Below, in pieces: positions 1 to 11,057 of a stretch of DNA of 18,919 nucleotides (its first letter is position 1; every line of letters starts with the position of its first letter). Below the pieces are notes generated by a model. It did no database searches. It was not told where the DNA came from and worked only from the letters and a program-made list of their open reading frames with translations. The DNA lies in assembly GCA_039810425.1 (NCBI GenBank), contig JBDHWW010000055.1, forward strand, positions 1 to 18,919, in the 5' to 3' direction. The translations under genes were made by a program, and so were the position numbers. Source of the DNA: Pseudobdellovibrionaceae bacterium. Lineage in GTDB: Bacteria; Bdellovibrionota; Bdellovibrionia; Bdellovibrionales; Bdellovibrionaceae.

Positions 1-329
1 AAACCGCTCCCAGCACCTACGAAGTCGTCAAATCGCGAAAGTCATAACGCCAGGCATGTGGATATGGAGGTAATTTTTTTTTCATTTTCAAGTAACCATA
101 CATTTGGTCTGCGATGTTGTCTAGAAAGGGAATGAATAAATGGCAGTGGTCGATCACTGGCAAAGAGACTTTCTGAACGAGGACTTAACTGGTGACCAAA
201 AGGCCAGCTCACCTGAGCACGCCGGACAAATTCAAACAGCCTTGTCGTGTTTCCGGACCGCAGCGCCAATGCTGCCATCAATAAAGCGATCCTAAATGAT
301 CATGGCAGTTGCAGATACGGCCTCTGCCG

Positions 330-1835
330 ATGTCTGTACCCAATGCCCAAACCTATCACTATCAGCGCCACGAACCCGAAAAAACCACACTCTATAAGCT
401 GATTCAGGAAAATTGGCTGACGTTCCAACAGCAGGTCGAACATGACCTGGGGTATCCGCTGCCAGATTTTGTGATCAAAGAGTTTGAAGAGTATTTACGC
501 TGCGGAATTTTGGCCCACGGATTCTTAAGGGCTCAGTGCACCAGCTGCCATCACGAGATGCTGGTGGCGTTTAGCTGCAAAAAACGAGGATTCTGTCCAT
601 CATGTGGAGCAAGGCGGATGTCAGAGACCGCAGCGCATTTAGTCGATCACGTTCTACCACACAAAAACATTCGCCAGTGGGTGCTGACATTCCCGGTGCC
701 GATCAGGCTGTGTTTGGCAGTTCGTCCAAAAGTTATGGCGCGCGCTTTAGACATAGCACATCTGGTGATCGGTCAATACTACCGCAAAAAAGCAGGGCTT
801 ACTGTGAGCAACTCGAAGTCCGGAGCAGTAACACTAATTCAGCGATTCGGCGGAAGCCTGAACCTGAACATCCATTTCCATCAGCTGTTCGTTGATGGCT
901 GCTATGAACTGAACCAACAAAAAGAACCCATCGACTTCTGGGTAGCAAACCCACCAACGGTTAAAGAGATCGAAGAGGTTCTAACAAAAATCATTAACAA
1001 ATTAACCAAGTACCTGGAACGACTAAAAATCATCATCCGCGATGATGACGACGATGGATTCCAAATCCCAATACCAGACGAAGATACTTTGTCAAAGCTT
1101 CAAGCCACATCAGTGACCTACAGATTTGCCACAGGCAAAAGTAAAGGCAAAAAAGCAATGGTGCTGAAGTCCATCACCGACAACGATCACACAGCTACAA
1201 AAGGGCTTGTTGCCAAACACTCAGGGTTTTCGCTGCACGCAGGAGTTGCCACCAAAGCTCATGAACGGGATCGATTGGAAAAAGTGTGTCGGTATATCGC
1301 TAGACCTGCTGTCGCCGAAGAGCGACTTTCTACCAACGATCAAGGTGACGTGATTTACAGGTTCAAAAAACCGTGGGATGACGGAACCACCGCAATGAAG
1401 CTAGCACCGATGGAGTTGATGGAACGGCTTGTGGCGCTGGTTCCACGGCCTAGGGTTCATCTAACACGATACCACGGCGTACTTGGACCCCATTATAAAC
1501 ACAGAAAACAAATAGTTCCAAAACCACCGCAACTAAAACTAGTACAAGATCAAGAAATCATCGAGTCAAAGCAGCTGGAACTGGAAAAGAAAAACATCCC
1601 CTGGGCAAGACTGCTTGCAAGGGTCTTCAACATTGACGTGGAAACCTGCGCCAAGTGCGGAGGCCAAATGAAAATCATTGCTGCCATCGAGGACCCCAAA
1701 GTGATTCGAAAGATTCTTGATCATATGGGGCTACCCACAAAACCACCGCCGTTGCAACCAGCCAGGGGGCCACCATCGCGAGATAGTCACCTCACAGATG
1801 ACTTTTGCCAGCAGCATTTCGAAGACTTTCAATAA
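330..1835 (+). CDS. IS91/ISCR-family HUH transposase (ATG 330 preferred over TTG 309)
   Basis: N-terminal Zn-binding domain (LRCG..HGF..CTSC..FSCKKRGFCPSC), RQWVLTFP, IQRFG, HUH motif NIHFH, GFSLHA, single-Tyr CRYIARP motif typical of ISCR, HLTRYHGVL, and C-terminal WARLLARVFNIDVETCAKCGG. Confidence 0.95.
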   Translation: MSVPNAQTYHYQRHEPEKTTLYKLIQENWLTFQQQVEHDLGYPLPDFVIKEFEEYLRCGILAHGFLRAQCTSCHHEMLVAFSCKKRGFCPSCGARRMSETAAHLVDHVLPHKNIRQWVLTFPVPIRLCLAVRPKVMARALDIAHLVIGQYYRKKAGLTVSNSKSGAVTLIQRFGGSLNLNIHFHQLFVDGCYELNQQKEPIDFWVANPPTVKEIEEVLTKIINKLTKYLERLKIIIRDDDDDGFQIPIPDEDTLSKLQATSVTYRFATGKSKGKKAMVLKSITDNDHTATKGLVAKHSGFSLHAGVATKAHERDRLEKVCRYIARPAVAEERLSTNDQGDVIYRFKKPWDDGTTAMKLAPMELMERLVALVPRPRVHLTRYHGVLGPHYKHRKQIVPKPPQLKLVQDQEIIESKQLELEKKNIPWARLLARVFNIDVETCAKCGGQMKIIAAIEDPKVIRKILDHMGLPTKPPPLQPARGPPSRDSHLTDDFCQQHFEDFQ

Positions 1836-1963
1836 ATCAACGACTAAGAAATTCAGTCGCAATGGGCTCCTTCGTTCAAAATCTAAAAAATCATTCTAGA
1901 AAATAAATTTCACGGCGAAATCTTCGGAAAATTATGAAATTCATTGCCAAAGACACGTCCTAA

Positions 1964-2968
1964 TCACACAATTTTAACAATAAGTACGGAAAAACTGATG
2001 TTCATATTGAGTAATTCGGCCTTTAAAATTCCTATCCTCATCCACTCAACATCCGGGGCCAGTCCAATCAAAATGAAACCTATCCCTAAAAAGAGAAGCC
2101 CGTAAAAATAAAGCTCCCATAACCTTTTTCTTTCCCTATTCCCAAAGTAAAGGGCGCCAATAAAGTTACCTACTCCGTATGAGGCCATAACCAATCCGAA
2201 ATAACGGGGGTCATTGCCACTCATCTCATGCACCAGAAGTGGAAAGCCAATCGCGATAACCAAGTTCCAGCAACCGGCTGTGACGGCCTTAGAAAAGAAA
2301 ACGTAACTCATTCCTGGGACACTGCGGGCCAGGTGAAAACCAGAGAGCACTGCCGTTTTAAAATTACTCTTAGGCATCTTCGAGTAATCCATTGGCGGAA
2401 GATATTTCTTTAACGAGTAAATGCAGTAAGCTGACACACAAAATGTCACAGCATCAATAGTGAAGAAATGAATCATCGGGATAAAGGCAGATAAAAGTCC
2501 AACGATGGCCGGACCTATCATGCGGGCCATGCGAATGGTAGTGCTCATCAAACCATTCGTTGACTGCATCAGCTCAGTGTTGCCGGCAAGAATAGGAATA
2601 AGACCTTGAGTGGCTGGATCAAAAAAAGCACTGAGTCCGGCAAGTGTAAAGGCCATCACCCACAATAGGACCAGTGGTGTCGGCATAAAAAAAGAAACGA
2701 CTACGGGAGTAAGAACAATCAATGCGCGGATGAAATCCACACACATCATCGTTCGCCTGGGATTCCAGCGATCGGCCCACTTGCCTCCGATAAAAGAAAG
2801 CAGCATAAGCGAAGCGGTCTGTCCTGCTGCCAAGTAACCTGTGTCGGGACCCATAAGGCCTACAGCAAGCCAGATAAGACCTACGCGGTAGATTTCATCC
2901 CCAATAGAAGAGAAGGCCTGGCCGAACCAGAGACGCAAAATTTGAGGCTGCTTAAGTGCCTTGATCAT
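1964..2968 (-). pseudogene. MFS transporter (DHA3/MefA-like efflux type), 3'-truncated by the ISCR oriIS; likely start ATG 2968
   Basis: LWFGQAFSSIGD, motif A GGKWADRWNPRR, FFDPA and RMIGPAIVG are present. The native part is only about 310 aa and lacks the last TM helices. After ...APDVEWM the frame runs through oriIS DNA (RIGILKAE...). Confidence 0.85.
2019..2038 (+). other. oriIS-like end of the ISCR element
   Basis: GCCTTTAAAATTCCTATCC resembles the G..TT.AA.TTCCTAT.C end of ISCR/IS91 elements (recalled consensus) and coincides with the MFS break. Confidence 0.75.
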
Positions 2969-3081
2969 AGAAGATAAATTAGCACTTATTTCAGAAGTCG
3001 CCTCGAGAAATATATCCGAGTGATGCACTTTTATTTCTGCGTAATATTTATTTAAAGACGCTTTTATCCGATAGGATTTTC

Positions 3082-3525
3082 ATGAAAAAATTAAACATCA
3101 CATTCTTGTTTTCTCTACTTCTTCTTAACACTGGATGCGCTCAATTTTCTGAGTCAGAAAGAATCCCCGCTTCTGGAGCAACAAATATTATTTCAACACC
3201 CAAGAGCATTGGTTTTATCTTTTTAGGGAAAACAAAATCATTAAGAGAAGAGATCTCTTCTGCCAAGTATGTTTTAGGCGAAGACATAGAGCGCGATAGA
3301 TTAATCCAAAAAGACTGGACGCCAATTGGCGACTTCATTGTCAGACCTGGAACAGTTTTAAAACTGACAAAAAACACCTATATGTACACCAAGGCCGCTG
3401 ACATCATTCGCGGTGTCGATAAAAATAGCGCGCTTTTTCTAAAAGAAGGCACTAAGGTGCGCATTCTTCAATACAACCAAAGCTCTTTGACGGCCACGAC
3501 GGCCATCATTGAAGTAATAGATTAA
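3082..3525 (+). CDS. Hypothetical lipoprotein with RIPAS motif after the lipobox
   Basis: MKK plus hydrophobic stretch plus LNTG-C19; 147-aa ORF; AGGA upstream. Confidence 0.75.
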   Translation: MKKLNITFLFSLLLLNTGCAQFSESERIPASGATNIISTPKSIGFIFLGKTKSLREEISSAKYVLGEDIERDRLIQKDWTPIGDFIVRPGTVLKLTKNTYMYTKAADIIRGVDKNSALFLKEGTKVRILQYNQSSLTATTAIIEVID

Positions 3526-3612
3526 TTCTCACACTGCAACATTCTACTTATTATCTTCATTTTTTCTAAATATCTTATATAGTATTGGGCATAACAATTT
3601 TTTGGAGATTTT

Positions 3613-4083
3613 ATGAAGAAGAGTTTATCCCTGATCGCTATGTTGGCCGCAGCACTTGTGGTTTCAAGCTGCGCAAGCAACAAAACAACATCTGAAAAAG
3701 TAGAACAAAAAGTAAAGGCCGTTCCTACTTCAATGACAAAATCAATTGAGCACACTGTAAAGGAACAAATCCAGACGTCTACTCTTTCTCAAGACAAAAA
3801 AGACAAGCTTCTTGCTCTTGAAGAAAAAGCAGCAGCTGAGCGCAAAGAAATTACAGAAGAAATCGAAAAAACAAAAGTTGTCATGATTGAAACTGTTCTT
3901 GCTCCAAAAATGAACGAGAAAGAGTTCAATTCGCTAAGAAGCAAAATCAAAGCTCTTGATAAAAAGAGACTGGACAATGGTTTTAAAACTCTAAGAGAAG
4001 TTCGCAATATCATCGATCCAAAATCAGCTGAACACCAAGAGATCTACAAAGCAGTTATTGAAAACCGCCTAAGAGGCTTCTAA
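3613..4083 (+). CDS. Hypothetical helical lipoprotein (possibly Spy/CpxP-like periplasmic protein)
   Basis: GGAG RBS, signal peptide with VVSS-C lipobox, charged amphipathic helices (LSQDKKDKL), followed by a terminator. Confidence 0.8.
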   Translation: MKKSLSLIAMLAAALVVSSCASNKTTSEKVEQKVKAVPTSMTKSIEHTVKEQIQTSTLSQDKKDKLLALEEKAAAERKEITEEIEKTKVVMIETVLAPKMNEKEFNSLRSKIKALDKKRLDNGFKTLREVRNIIDPKSAEHQEIYKAVIENRLRGF

Positions 4084-4087
4084 TATC

Positions 4088-4116
4088 AAGGCCCGCTTTA
4101 AGCGGGCCTTTTTTTT
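4088..4116 (+). terminator. Rho-independent terminator
   Basis: Perfect stem AAGGCCCGCT-TTA-AGCGGGCCTT followed by a T run, immediately after stop 4083. Confidence 0.9.
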
Positions 4117-4156
4117 GCAATCTTTTCTCTTAAGGAATAAACCTTAGGAGATAACA

Positions 4157-4825
4157 ATGGATTTGCGCTCTTCTGAAAATTTCTGGCCGATCAAAAATGG
4201 ACTTTTGGGGATTTTTCCCTCACTCAAGCAATCACTCAAAGGCGACATTGCCATCATGGGGGCCGGTATTTCCGGGGCCATCATGGCCGACACTCTCTGC
4301 AAACTTGGATTTGACGTCATCATGCTGGACAAGCGCCACTGTGGATTTGGCAGTACAGCTGCAAGCACTGCCCTCATCCAATATGAGATCGACACTCCCC
4401 TTTATGAATTAATAAAAAAACGCGGAGTCAATCATGCCGTCCAAAGCTACAGGCTTTGTGTCGAGGCCATCGGGCATCTTGAAGCCCTGGCAAAACAATT
4501 TCCCCAAACCGGATTTAAACGTCATCCAAGCTTTCAATTTACTTCCTCAAAATCTCATCTTCACGACCATCAAAAAGAAGAAGAACTCAGAAAGCTCTAC
4601 CATATTTCAGACACCGAATGGCTTACCTCTGCCGATATCAAAAAAATGTTCTCTTTTAATAAGCATGGGGGAATATTCTCAAAGGACGGAGCTGTTCTTG
4701 ATCCCTTTCAGCTCACGTATGCCCTTATCTCCTCTCATCATAAAAAAAACCTGCGCGTCTTCGACAACACAGAGGTGCTCGATATCATCCACCACCAAAA
4801 AGGCGTCACTTTACAATGCTCATAG
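4157..4825 (+). pseudogene. FAD-dependent oxidoreductase (DadA/PuuB-like), 3'-truncated at about 4819
   Basis: AGGAG RBS; Rossmann DIAIMGAGISG and GSTAASTALIQYEID. It stops at 222 aa, where the inverted transposase fragment starts; the family is normally about 400 aa. Confidence 0.85.
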
Positions 4826-5110
4826 CAGCCATCAACGAACAGCTGATGGAAATGGATGTTCAGGTTCAGGCTTCCGCCGAATCGCTGAATTAGTGTTACT
4901 GCTCCGGACTTCGAGTTGCTCACAGTAAGCCCTGCTTTTTTGCGGTAGTATTGACCGATCACCAGATGTGCTATGTCTAAAGCGCGCGCCATAACTTTTG
5001 GACGAACTGCCAAACACAGCCTGATCGGCACTGGAAATGTCAGCACCCACTGGCGAATGTTTTTGTGCGGCAGAACGTGATCCACCAGATGGGCTGCGGT
5101 CTCCGACATC
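4820..5110 (-). repeat. Inverted 291-bp internal copy of the transposase gene (equals 617-907)
   Basis: Manual alignment gives 282/291 identical. 4820-5031 is identical to 696-907, and 9 synonymous differences fall in 5032-5104. Confidence 0.95.
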
Positions 5111-5290
5111 AACCAAATCCCCATGCTCATCCAGCGTTAAATTTGAAATGAGCCTTTTAACTCGAATTTAACGGGGGCCTGAGTTTTAAACTACGACAGA
5201 ATTATCGGGGACAAGTCTGATTTAACCGTGACTGTTGCATAGGTCCCCAGACCGTTGATCAACCAGACTGACCTTTTGTTCACTTTAGAC

Positions 5291-5328
5291 AAAAAAATAG
5301 GGAGCCACCTTATTTGGTGACTCCCTAT
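5291..5328 (-). terminator. Rho-independent terminator downstream of the recombinase
   Basis: Stem ATAGGGAGCCACC/GGTGACTCCCTAT (one wobble), followed by a T run on the minus strand. Confidence 0.8.
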
Positions 5329-5363
5329 CGTTGGCCGCTAATTTTTTTATCCGATAAATCCAA

Positions 5364-6152
5364 TCAGTCATAAGTTTCGTATCCGGCGTGGCCCATGACG
5401 GATTGAACTTTATCACGAGCTTCAGACTCGATTTTTTGTTGCACCTGTTTGACGATGTCATCGGATACGTTCATCGTCTTCATGGTTTCAATTGTTTCCA
5501 AGGTGCTGTTTTGCTTGATCTGATTTTGGAGCTCTTGAATTTTTTCTTGTTCAAGCTTTGCTTTCTTTGCAAGAAGTTCTTTTTTAGACGCTGATACCGA
5601 ACCATGTGAACAGCGAGCGATCCTCGCGACCTCTCTGAAACTAAGACCTGCTTCTAAAAGCGAGTGTATTAGGGCATCGTTTCTTTTGCGGACCCGGCCT
5701 ATGATTTTCCCTTTTGCCTTGGCATTTCTCATTCCGGCCTTTACTCGTTCTTGTATCATTGAACGCTCCAGCTGCGCCAGCGAGCCCAAAATCGTGAACA
5801 TTGCGACCCCCATGCTAGATTCAGTGTCGATTTGCTCAGTAATACTGACAAAACGAGTTTTGCAGTCCTTAAAAATCTGTAATCCTTTAAGTAAGTGCAT
5901 CGTGGATCGGGCAAACCGACTGAAGGCAAAAACGATGACTTGTTCCGCCTCTAAATTTTTTACTCGTTCCATCATTTTATCTAAAGCGGGACGGCTTTCT
6001 TTGGCTCCAGAAACTCCGTGGTCAGTGAATGTTTCAAAATCAATTATATTGTTTCGGCTACACCATTCGTTTAAGGCTCTTGCCTGTGACTCTGCACCTC
6101 CAATTTGATCCAATGTTGAAACTCTGATGTATAAAAATGTTTTTCTCGACAT
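5364..6152 (-). CDS. Serine recombinase (resolvase/invertase family) with HTH and extra C-terminal helical tail
   Basis: YIRVST catalytic Ser motif, DHGVSG..RPAL, FSRFARS, AQLERSMIQERV..G..GR, HTH (GLSFREVARIARCSHGSV), then about 65 extra charged residues; AAAGGA RBS. Confidence 0.93.
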   Translation of the reverse strand: MSRKTFLYIRVSTLDQIGGAESQARALNEWCSRNNIIDFETFTDHGVSGAKESRPALDKMMERVKNLEAEQVIVFAFSRFARSTMHLLKGLQIFKDCKTRFVSITEQIDTESSMGVAMFTILGSLAQLERSMIQERVKAGMRNAKAKGKIIGRVRKRNDALIHSLLEAGLSFREVARIARCSHGSVSASKKELLAKKAKLEQEKIQELQNQIKQNSTLETIETMKTMNVSDDIVKQVQQKIESEARDKVQSVMGHAGYETYD

Positions 6153-6190
6153 GGGCTACGTCCTTTATGAAAAATTTTAATATTTGGAAT

Positions 6191-6224
6191 AAAAAGAAAA
6201 AACCCACGAAGGTCACCCGTGGGT
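6191..6224 (-). terminator. Terminator-like hairpin between the small ORF and the recombinase
   Basis: ACCCACG-N9-CGTGGGT (6202-6224), followed on the minus strand by a T-rich run. Confidence 0.55.
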
Positions 6225-6285
6225 AAAAATAATTTTCATTTTTTTGATTCAGCTTTTTTAAAAAACTGAAAAATTCGTTACACAG

Positions 6286-6453
6286 CTATTTGTCCAAGAG
6301 CATTCTGGTGTACTTGGAATAAGAGATCATGCCTTTTTGAGTTTTTTCGCCAGCCATACCCATCAACTGCAAGGTGCAGAACTTCAGCTGCCCCATGAGC
6401 GCAAGAATAATCCCTAGCCTTACCACAAACGATACAAATTTTACGATTTCCAA
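6286..6453 (-). CDS. Small (55 aa) single-TM hypothetical protein, absent from the ORF track
   Basis: GGAGG SD (6459-6463) 5 nt before TTG. Translates MEIVKFVSFVVRLGIILALMGQLKFCTLQLMGMAGEKTQKGMISYSKYTRMLLDK and is followed by a terminator-like hairpin. Confidence 0.7.
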   Translation of the reverse strand: MEIVKFVSFVVRLGIILALMGQLKFCTLQLMGMAGEKTQKGMISYSKYTRMLLDK

Positions 6454-6592
6454 AAGGACCTCCAAAAAATTAAGATCGAATTCGCTACCAGAGCGAGTTC
6501 AATTTATCAGGCGACTCCATGACGGCGTCCCCGCTAAATCAAAATCAGCCCGGGAGCGAATCCTTGTTAAAATTCCGTCCCCGAAAATTGCG

Positions 6593-6624
6593 TGTAGCAA
6601 AAGTTGTAGCAAAATGTAGTAAAG
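6593..6624 (+). repeat. Three direct repeats TGTAG(C/T)AAA(A), integrase arm-site-like
   Basis: TGTAGCAAAA at 6593-6602 and 6605-6614, and TGTAGTAAAG at 6615-6624, about 120-150 bp from the tRNA 3' end. Confidence 0.7.
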
Positions 6625-6745
6625 TTTTGAAATACCCAGAAATACTCTGAAATATTCTCCGAAGATTTGTGCAGCCTCGTTCGTGTTATTAAGTACTTAA
6701 TGCGATTGATAATTTTGAAATTTGCGATTTTTTCGAGAGAGTAAA

Positions 6746-6835
6746 TGGCGGACAGGGTGAGATTCGAACTCACGGTGGCGGTTAGACCACACACGCGTTC
6801 CAGGCGTGCGCCTTAAACCACTCGGCCACCTGTCC
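6746..6835 (-). tRNA. tRNA-Ser(GGA)
   Basis: Reverse complement GGACAGGTGGCCGAGTGGTTTAAGGCGCACGCCTGGAACGCGTG...GTGAGTTCGAATCTCACCCTGTCCGCCA: 90 nt, long variable arm, GGA anticodon, encoded CCA. Confidence 0.97.
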
Positions 6836-6860
6836 ACTTTGGAACGTAATTGAAGGGCTA

Positions 6861-6890
6861 GGTTTAGCATGCTGAATATCGCCCGGTCAA
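6861..6890 (-). promoter_or_regulatory. Putative sigma70 promoter of the tRNA
   Basis: TTGACC-N18-TAAACC with an extended -10 TG, about 25 bp upstream of the tRNA. Confidence 0.4.
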
Positions 6891-7050
6891 AGCTGGATTT
6901 AGGTAAAAATTAAGGAAAATCGTCGCCAGAGGCCGTTTATTTTGAAATGATATCCCTGGAAGGCGGTCGGGCGTCCAGACCAATCTCCTGAAAATAAGCG
7001 CAAAGATGAAGCGGCTCCCTTTCTTTGGCTATACTGAAAGTGGAGGATGC

Positions 7051-9389: not shown

Positions 9390-11057
9390 CTAGCTGTTGC
9401 TTAAGATTTTTTTTCTCATTTTCCAGAGGAGGTGGCTGATATATGGGCGGCGATTTTCTTTTGATGCCACCATCAGCAATTTTGTGATTTTCAGATCATT
9501 TGGATCTGTATAGAGCAAAATCATCAATTCCTGAATGAAGTTTGTATTCAACGTCACGTAGTTATCCGTTCCTACGCCAAGCTGCACGTTTTTCTTTTCC
9601 CACCAAGAGAACGGATGATCTTTGTAATCATCGAATTTGCCGGTGAGTTTATTATTTGAAGAGGGGAGAGAGATCAAAGAGATCTCTTTCTGAATCATAC
9701 GGTTCAAAACGTCATGCTGGTAGTGTTCCACCTCGCGTGCCGTATGGAACTTCGCTTTCAAGAAATCCGTATTGTCTTGCTCAGTCAAAAGTACGCCTTT
9801 GAGCAATTTATCCAACACCGGTTTGTAGTTACCCCAATCAAGCTCGGTCAGTTCGCGATAGTGCGGATCTTTCGCTAGGATTGCAATGCCTTGCTTATTC
9901 TTGTGGGAAACTTCCTGATAGAGGCGGTGGAAGTACACGTTTGGGTTAATCCCGAGGCTAATCCCATGTTCAAGCGTGTCTATGTGCCAGATGTTCATGG
10001 CGTTGTCGACGGCCTGAATGCCTTTTTTGAGAGTATGCCAAGTTTCGCCGTGATGGGAACGGATTTTCAAACCGCGGTATTGTAATTTACGGAAGCCGGT
10101 TTGCATCTCGTAGAAATGCTCTTTGCGGTAAAGCTCGCGTTCGTCACCCACGGTGTCCACATCGGTCATATGCTTTTGCAGGAAAGGGTACTTATCCATC
10201 ATGCGGATCATGTCGTTGATTTGAGCTATGAAGTGATCCTTGCGGGATTTGAATCTCGCGGAGTCAAAGAAGCTCGACTCTTTACGGAATGACGGGGAAA
10301 GAACGAAATCAAAATCAGAATGCTCATCCTGGAATTTCTTAAAGCCCTCGTATAAACCAAGAACCACGTCTTCAGGTGTGACATCGTCAATGCCCGGGAT
10401 CTGTTCCGAAGAGCTCGACGTCGCGCGGTCTAACGTAAACTTCAAACGAATGCGGCCGACATTAAATTTGCTATAGAGCTCGTTGGCCATATCGTAAGCT
10501 GCATCCGCATGCGTTTGGCGATCAATAAATACCAACTTTGGAAGATACAGGATCTTCAAGTAAGTCAGGAAGCCTTCGGTCTCATCCAACCGAATCAACT
10601 TATCGACATCGGCAATCGACTTGATCGGCAGAGCTTGGTCGCCGTAAACTTCTTTGATTTTCGTTTCGTAAATATCCTTATGAGGACCTTCGAGAAGTTT
10701 CTTCAGCCGGGGGTACAAAAATTCAGCCGTAATTGAGCCAGTAAGGTGGATGTGCTCCTCGTGATATTTCATTGGGAAATTTTTAAATAGTTCGAACAAG
10801 CACTCTGAAATCGGATGGACGAGCAAAACATTGATATTGATTTTATTGGTAACGAACTGGTCAATGAGGCCACGGAACTCAACCGCCAGATCCAAAGCTT
10901 TTTGGTTTTCAGCATTCAACTCGGAAGAGATCAGAAGATTCAAAGTATCTTTGAGCGAGATCCCGTTGGTTTCGCTCACGATAAGGGTGAGCCATTTTAC
11001 TAAGTCTTTTTTGGTTTTCGGATCTAACGCGCCCGGTTTTTTTTCATTTTTTAGCAT
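9390..11057 (-). CDS. Adenosine/AMP-deaminase-fold amidohydrolase, enlarged (555 aa)
   Basis: Metal-site motifs EHIHLTGS, VGDE, HHGE, LEHG, LPSSN and GTDN, in the order seen in adenosine deaminases. Confidence 0.8.
   Translation of the reverse strand: MLKNEKKPGALDPKTKKDLVKWLTLIVSETNGISLKDTLNLLISSELNAENQKALDLAVEFRGLIDQFVTNKININVLLVHPISECLFELFKNFPMKYHEEHIHLTGSITAEFLYPRLKKLLEGPHKDIYETKIKEVYGDQALPIKSIADVDKLIRLDETEGFLTYLKILYLPKLVFIDRQTHADAAYDMANELYSKFNVGRIRLKFTLDRATSSSSEQIPGIDDVTPEDVVLGLYEGFKKFQDEHSDFDFVLSPSFRKESSFFDSARFKSRKDHFIAQINDMIRMMDKYPFLQKHMTDVDTVGDERELYRKEHFYEMQTGFRKLQYRGLKIRSHHGETWHTLKKGIQAVDNAMNIWHIDTLEHGISLGINPNVYFHRLYQEVSHKNKQGIAILAKDPHYRELTELDWGNYKPVLDKLLKGVLLTEQDNTDFLKAKFHTAREVEHYQHDVLNRMIQKEISLISLPSSNNKLTGKFDDYKDHPFSWWEKKNVQLGVGTDNYVTLNTNFIQELMILLYTDPNDLKITKLLMVASKENRRPYISHLLWKMRKKILSNS

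Follow-up and report, generated by a model that had tools for sequence, protein, structure and literature searches.

An inverted transposase fragment joined to Bacteriovorax-like DNA in a tRNA-Ser island of a Pseudobdellovibrionaceae bacterium, most likely debris of an IS91/ISCR-type element

The window, i.e., the entire stretch of 18,919 nucleotides analysed here, is one whole contig of a 149-contig metagenome assembly, and its host falls in the family of Bdellovibrio and the Pseudobdellovibrionaceae assemblies. A genomic island bounded by a tRNA-Ser gene makes up its left part and holds, from left to right, a complete insertion sequence (IS), a segment of foreign DNA, an inverted fragment of the transposase gene, and a serine-recombinase module (Table 1). 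The Rfam scan returned the tRNA as its only match and none for 5111-5295. Positions 1-72 are the end of another multicopy element, which recurs at the ends of 12 other contigs; two further contigs of the assembly bear a related end. In the core region, 9390-11057 encodes a 555-aa protein with a weak adenosine-deaminase match only.

Table 1. Features of the island and its border, in window coordinates (tnp, transposase gene).
Feature	Position	Strand	Basis
Complete IS91/ISCR-type element, 1,909 bp	131..2039	+	Span of alignment with relatives
HUH transposase; start TTG gives 508 aa, start ATG 330 gives 501 aa	309..1835	+	Pfam, motifs
Left arm of the inverted repeat, inside the intact transposase gene	617..907	+	Repeat search, arm alignment
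Foreign Bacteriovorax-like segment, 2,780 bp, both end genes broken	2040..4819		Identity, gene order
MFS transporter, cut after ~309 of 409 codons, exactly at the oriIS end	2040..2968	-	
Strong intrinsic terminator (4088-4110) and second hairpin over the oxidoreductase ribosome-binding site	4088..4151	+	Predicted folds
FAD oxidoreductase of the DAO family; breaks off behind codon 221 (of 401)	4157..4819	+	Pfam, intact relatives
212-nt part of the fragment, same sequence as tnp 696-907	4820..5031	-	Arm alignment
79-nt part of the fragment, different allele (tnp 617-695) with 9 synonymous differences	5032..5110	-	
Conserved non-coding stretch with inverted repeat 5135-5173	5111..5295		7 loci; likely recombination site (inferred)
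Small serine recombinase (resolvase family); terminator 5296-5329	5364..6152	-	
tRNA-Ser(GGA), whose 3' end bounds island 1-6745	6746..6835	-	Rfam

The limits of the intact element are sharp: alignments with relatives begin at 131 and end at 2039, with divergence outside, and contigs from two read runs, X3 and X4, depart from the window at 125-131 and at 2039. We infer the ori and ter labels of its ends by analogy, calling the downstream end oriIS because the orientation of the gene follows the IS91 layout. The ter-side end starts at an invariant AATG (131-134) and the oriIS-side end reads CCTATCCTC (2031-2039). Each of 28 distinct ter flanks has a loose 12-nt motif and, at its very end, AATG (approximately KKTCMAAAAMSN; window 119-134), while on the ori side CCTATCC(T/G)C precedes 44 distinct flanks, which have no shared tetranucleotide next to oriIS and are biased at a single position, the first after oriIS (T in 22, C in 11, A in 11, and G in none). 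Comparison of empty sites for 13 complete elements gave no clear answer on whether AATG belongs to the element or to its target. The transposase matches the Pfam families Zn_Tnp_IS91 (PF14319) and Y2_Tnp (PF04986), both above cut-off, and carries a zinc-finger part, HFH at residue 189, and one RYIAR tyrosine; a YxxxY pair is absent. It scores below the cut-offs of the NCBIfam models for ISCR clade Ia (458.7 bits against 925) and the IS91 transposase (106 against 125), and the element would resemble ISCR in action while being classed only at family level. No end-to-end terminal inverted repeat of 131-2039 figures among the 25 longest repeats listed. Two pairs of loci have a common ter flank and different ori flanks (L070/L071 over 56 nt, L002/L003 over 15 nt), which hints at one-ended transposition. 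In another locus (L001, 486-4289), ORFs resembling, as judged by eye, a nucleotidyltransferase and a class D beta-lactamase stand on either side of a relative of the element.

The earlier note had called the gene beside the fragment captured, and 2040-4819 is indeed foreign by identity, protein clustering, and gene order. Its GC content is 42% against 49% for the genome; it matches G663 with 97% identity over 1,946 nt and G499 with 87% over 2,089 nt, two genomes of the same phylum and another class, compared with about 70% for members of the host family. The order MFS transporter-lipoprotein-oxidoreductase recurs in G702, a member of that Bacteriovorax-like genus, and the MFS protein shares a 90% cluster with proteins of Bacteriovorax stolpii. 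Two genes inside the captured DNA are intact (3082-3525, and a lipoprotein-like gene at 3613-4083). Full-length relatives of the oxidoreductase (P0149, P0152) have 401 aa, and two further runs, X5 and X15 (the latter probably DNA), contain the gene unbroken through 4819, that is, the sequence as it was before the break. A hairpin is predicted at 4126-4151, over the ribosome-binding site of the oxidoreductase and just behind the strong terminator. Judged by these comparisons, the segment passed recently from one class of predatory bacteria to another. One of its ends lies exactly at oriIS; the other lies bluntly at transposase nt 907, on the opposite strand.

The fragment at this second end is the antiparallel transposase copy of 291 nt described earlier: 617-907 and 4820-5110 are 97% complementary, with 3,912 nt between them (E 3e-136 in BLAST of the genome). 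It spans transposase codons 103-200, thereby covering the HFH motif (nt 873), and ends 6 codons beyond it, much as the earlier note had placed it. The reported fusion to a broken FAD oxidoreductase is likewise confirmed as a blunt joint after codon 221, the ORF (4157-4825) consisting of 221 codons of its own followed by 2 codons of the fragment. All nine mismatches between the arms are synonymous and fall within tnp 623-695, a clustering with a chance of about 1e-5, whereas tnp 696-907 has none. On this alignment the fragment is a mosaic of two alleles, 212 nt being identical to the neighbouring gene and 79 nt stemming from another allele. The assembly contains no other piece of this transposase and only one target copy.

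Evidence on the junctions came from strandless contigs of run X1, possibly the source sample, and run X2, which belongs to another study. A single X1 contig (5038-5874) crosses the fragment's right junction and another (1103-4849) passes the left one by 30 nt, one letter below our bridging rule of 31; depth in X1 is doubled over the shared part, at 31.6 compared with 16-19 on the flanks. Run X2 holds both junctions with 0 differences (contigs 2032-4849 and 5038-5119). A chimeric assembly, raised earlier as a concern, is thus contradicted, since both junctions lie inside contigs of two studies. The shared contig of X2 has T>G at 4903, for which gene conversion or a collapsed variant could account. 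A scan of JGI metagenomes with exact patterns of this allele gave 0 matches.

To the right of the fragment, 5111-5295 is common to 7 distinct loci and the DNA to its left differs in each; the end of the fragment at 5110 coincides exactly with this conserved edge. The serine-recombinase module is linked to a tRNA in relatives as well, and the edge is likely a recombination point. In X2 only 5111-5119 is shared, followed by 6.6 kb of other DNA, and therefore the unit of IS, cargo, and fragment exists in two settings. This same IS lies in the variable zone of two other module loci, in the same direction (L057, L075). Side by side, the module (5111-6776; also in L056, L057, L058, L061, L063, and L075) has a 185-nt non-coding tail past whose edge the DNA differs per genome, like a site-specific capture point. 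A likeness of 16 in 24 positions, in direct orientation, between 2022-2045 (the oriIS/MFS join) and 5111-5134 was noticed post hoc and is probably due to chance.

Of 390 genomes of the class, 89 (the host genome among them) contain pieces of this IS, and most listed matches are partial. For the survey of antisense internal fragments that had been proposed earlier, 40 internal-looking matches were chosen from this list and pooled with the loci compared before, 11 duplicate loci were skipped, and pieces were kept if both element ends were missing, identity was at least 76%, length was at most 800 nt, and at least 300 nt of other DNA lay on each side. Gene calls were crude, and orientation was scored by the genes ending near a piece, regardless of terminators. 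Excluding the window, 26 pieces of 43-494 nt in 25 loci were left, among which there is no antisense bias: with a gene end within 200 nt, 6 were sense-only, 4 antisense-only, 7 both, and 9 neither (p = 0.75). At 100 nt the corresponding numbers were 6, 3, 3, and 14, at 400 nt they were 8, 4, 10, and 4, and in a stricter set without the window's own piece they were 4, 4, 7, and 6 (n = 21). A broken gene running directly into a piece in antisense was found in the window alone among 27 pieces; in sense orientation there are two cases of a gene whose end lies no more than 8 nt from a piece. A lone 66-nt piece between genes (L001, 6842-6907) is 100% identical to window 483-548 and 83% identical to the element of L001 itself. 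Many of the other pieces are 43-130 nt long, and the flanks of 13 small pieces showed no telling match. One further locus (L031, 4868-5083) has a 3' part of the element and, 3.3 kb downstream, an inverted internal piece (tnp 613-804) that is truncated by the contig end.

Taken together, the structure is real and most likely ordinary IS debris of a cross-class capture. As to its history, we lean, with little more than even confidence, towards the fragment being what is left, without function, of a second IS91/ISCR copy in opposite orientation that took part in the capture of Bacteriovorax-like DNA. Two IS copies would first have become attached to the foreign DNA, each with its ori side turned inward; the right copy would then have lost 908-2039 up to the join, probably via a transposase nick there; recombination with another allele would have replaced its 617-695; and finally its 5' part would have been cut at the edge of the serine-recombinase site, the unit ending up in the tRNA-Ser island. 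On this view antisense RNA or inversion by RecA, if either occurs, would be incidental. This sequence of events is consistent with a left junction of the foreign segment exactly at the conserved ori end, with a right junction that shows no microhomology between the unbroken oxidoreductase gene and the transposase and follows a minus-strand AATG, the family's invariant ter-end tetranucleotide (of which the background is about 4 sites per kb and strand), and with end genes that are both foreign and broken. The allele mosaic points to recombination between copies, and the more abundant copies of X2 share the fragment's bases at tnp 692 and 695. The 5' cut coincides with a module edge conserved in 7 loci, pieces of the IS are common in the class and unbiased in orientation, and the element is present, in the same direction, in the variable zones of L057 and L075.

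Several observations weigh against a second copy. No intermediate with a longer copy was found, and the AATG predicted as target at the MFS junction is missing from the donor-like G663 and G499. The AATG at the oxidoreductase break ranks, by its upstream motif, only in the top 19% of 28,876 such sites, and the break has G at +1, a base seen in 0 of 44 ori flanks. Short, sharp pieces also occur elsewhere, and the 66-nt piece of L001, being 100% identical to this allele, implies that pieces may arrive without a whole copy. A strict AATG target at the MFS junction was considered separately: the intact protein fits it (W-I-I), but donor-like DNA has no AATG at the break, so it was rejected there. 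Cryptic ter or ori sites at 907/908 and at 617 were also tried and discarded as weak (-10.3 and -1.7, the latter in the top 13%).

A possible though rather unlikely alternative has the fragment patched in directly, as an internal single-stranded stretch of the IS inserted by strand transfer of the transposase at cryptic nicks or by illegitimate recombination of the host, for instance of the short-patch kind. The 26 internal pieces in 25 other loci, with both ends missing, are what such a process would leave, and so is the L001 piece that matches the window better than its own element. The junctions are blunt, and both joins link a foreign 3' end to a 5' end on the bottom strand of the IS, which is the one that IS91 transposes (10.1101/2025.01.24.634351, PMC13181058). 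That polarity, however, is one of just two possible orientations, 907/908 fits neither end motif (-10.3) and its CTAT is out of register with ori, and the mosaic still requires a recombination step. By patching or as the remnant of a second copy, the fragment is debris either way.

A more speculative scheme, which we regard as improbable, would have the transposase ligate the free 3' ends of foreign linear DNA to the strand of its element that it has nicked, both at oriIS and at cryptic internal sites; the inverted IS arms of the doubly joined duplex would recombine into resident copies, and sloppy nicking would shed short pieces across the Bdellovibrionota. If true, this would be gene capture without insertion into the donor chromosome, here with a competing predator as donor.

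The earlier note had proposed that transcription of the broken oxidoreductase makes antisense RNA against the transposase mRNA of related copies. In the full form of this reading the RNA silences those copies in trans and the fragment is retained for that role, which we consider very unlikely. The lack of a terminator on which the proposal was built holds good, there being no convincing plus-strand terminator from the oxidoreductase start to the fragment (the scan gave 11 sites compared with 8.1 +/- 2.6 in shuffles, with one weak site inside the fragment at 5038-5055). The best plus-strand promoter-like site (4761-4788, 10 of 12 matches) lies 32 nt upstream of the fragment, yet the promoter scan as a whole is at chance level (13 sites against 10.8 +/- 3.7). 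Likewise, the broken gene reading straight into an antisense piece is unique among the 27 pieces, but the survey has 4 antisense-only against 6 sense-only cases (3 against 6 and 4 against 8 at the other distances). The same junction persists in two studies; the samples X1 and X2 share one origin, however, and their junctions are therefore not independent recurrences. IS10 RNA-OUT does work in trans against every copy, blocking ribosome binding at the 5' end of the transposase mRNA (PMC4513863), whereas the fragment, covering nt 617-907, misses both the transposase start (309 or 330) and its ribosome-binding site. The assembly holds one target copy only, and the oxidoreductase itself sits behind the strong terminator, with the predicted hairpin over its ribosome site. 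Two small RNA runs from the study of X1 contain next to no words of the window, which is no proof of absence. The accessible portions of the literature, mostly open-access, contain nothing on truncated IS copies as antisense traps or on this element family. An antisense trap would, if true, be a bacterial counterpart of host-captured silencing loci, a role for which the survey gives no support; incidental antisense RNA across 4820-5110 is possible.

Even less credible is an inversion switch, in which the transposase would alternate between an intact and a divided form, as a state under regulation or selection, whenever a crossover of the arms reverses 908-4819. The inverted identity is perfect over 212 nt, the flip would yield the predicted products (a stub of 226 aa and an ORF of 405/412 aa that lacks the zinc-finger part), a serine recombinase adjoins, and RecA-driven inversion between inverted repeats is known (PMC2327257). 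In that lambda system, though, identical inverted repeats of ~800 bp aided by a Chi site reach just 3e-4 RecABCD inversions per generation (same source), from which rare flipping of 908-4819 is to be expected; by this analogy RecA flipping is possible. The conserved site of the recombinase is present in one copy, outside the arms, and has no inverted partner in 1-7000 (best 15 of 24). Contigs of this allele covering 570-945 are intact in X3 and X4, and in X2 the fragment's 5' side has a depth of 26.7, in keeping with the 23.5 of the oxidoreductase side, as against 39.9 for the 3' side of the transposase. Contigs break at the repeat and cannot reveal a minority flipped form; the other samples support the arm pairing of the window as the ancestral one. 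Three database proteins that start with MSETAAH (P0141, P0142, P0146) were considered as flipped forms and set aside, as their contigs measure 1.5 kb and the genes were probably truncated by the contig ends. The least probable account is that the assembler made the junctions, or the link between host and foreign DNA, at a repeat: the metagenome assembly is fragmented into 149 contigs, this contig begins in a collapsed repeat, the samples hold many IS alleles, and no more than 30 letters reach across the left junction, but contigs of two studies contain both junctions, depth is twofold over the shared part, and both X1 exits of that part enter contig 1103-4849, which ties the foreign DNA to the recombinase side under any resolution of the repeat.

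The locus is a base-exact record of a recent 2.8 kb transfer between two predatory classes, bounded by definable ISCR-type ends. Since this element family also stands beside resistance-like genes in other sludge genomes (L001), its joining of DNA bears on gene flow in wastewater. IS-linked gene gain has been described in a Bacteriovorax (PMC12642874). The transposition of IS91 and ISCR elements is treated in several papers (10.1101/2025.01.24.634351, PMC13181058, PMC9330008, PMC3575428). In common with IS91, IS801, IS1294, and ISCR, our element has an HUH transposase with zinc-finger and Y2_Tnp domains, unlike ends with ori downstream of the gene, adjoining foreign genes, and hints of one-ended transposition. 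It differs from IS91, IS801, and IS1294, which carry an ori-adjacent tetranucleotide (10.1101/2025.01.24.634351), in having none in 44 flanks, and shows AATG with the loose 12-nt motif at the ter side instead; it also stays below the NCBIfam cut-offs of IS91 and ISCR clade Ia and lacks a YxxxY pair. Its cargo lies on the ori side, in contrast to IS91/ISCR, and therefore simple read-through from this copy would not carry it.

As regards antisense control, IS30 has RNA-C, which is antisense to the mid-part of its gene. The fragment resembles IS10 RNA-OUT and IS200 art200 in its perfect complementarity and, in principle, in acting in trans (PMC4513863), but those RNAs have the element's own promoter and pair at the 5' end or the ribosome site, whereas the fragment is internal, reliant on a foreign broken gene, and unconserved among copies. 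With the RecA inversion of Tn10/IS10 in lambda the locus shares long inverted repeats around a segment (PMC2327257), and IS copies are recombination hot spots (PMC9330008). Here, however, the arms are perfect over only 212 nt, flipping would be rare and unregulated, and there is no known toggled promoter or phenotype. Hin, Gin, and Pin invertible switches have short inverted recombinase sites flanking the segment. The locus is like them in having a serine recombinase ('Pin-like' in one source) beside the repeat, but no such pair of sites surrounds the segment, and the arms consist of transposase coding sequence.
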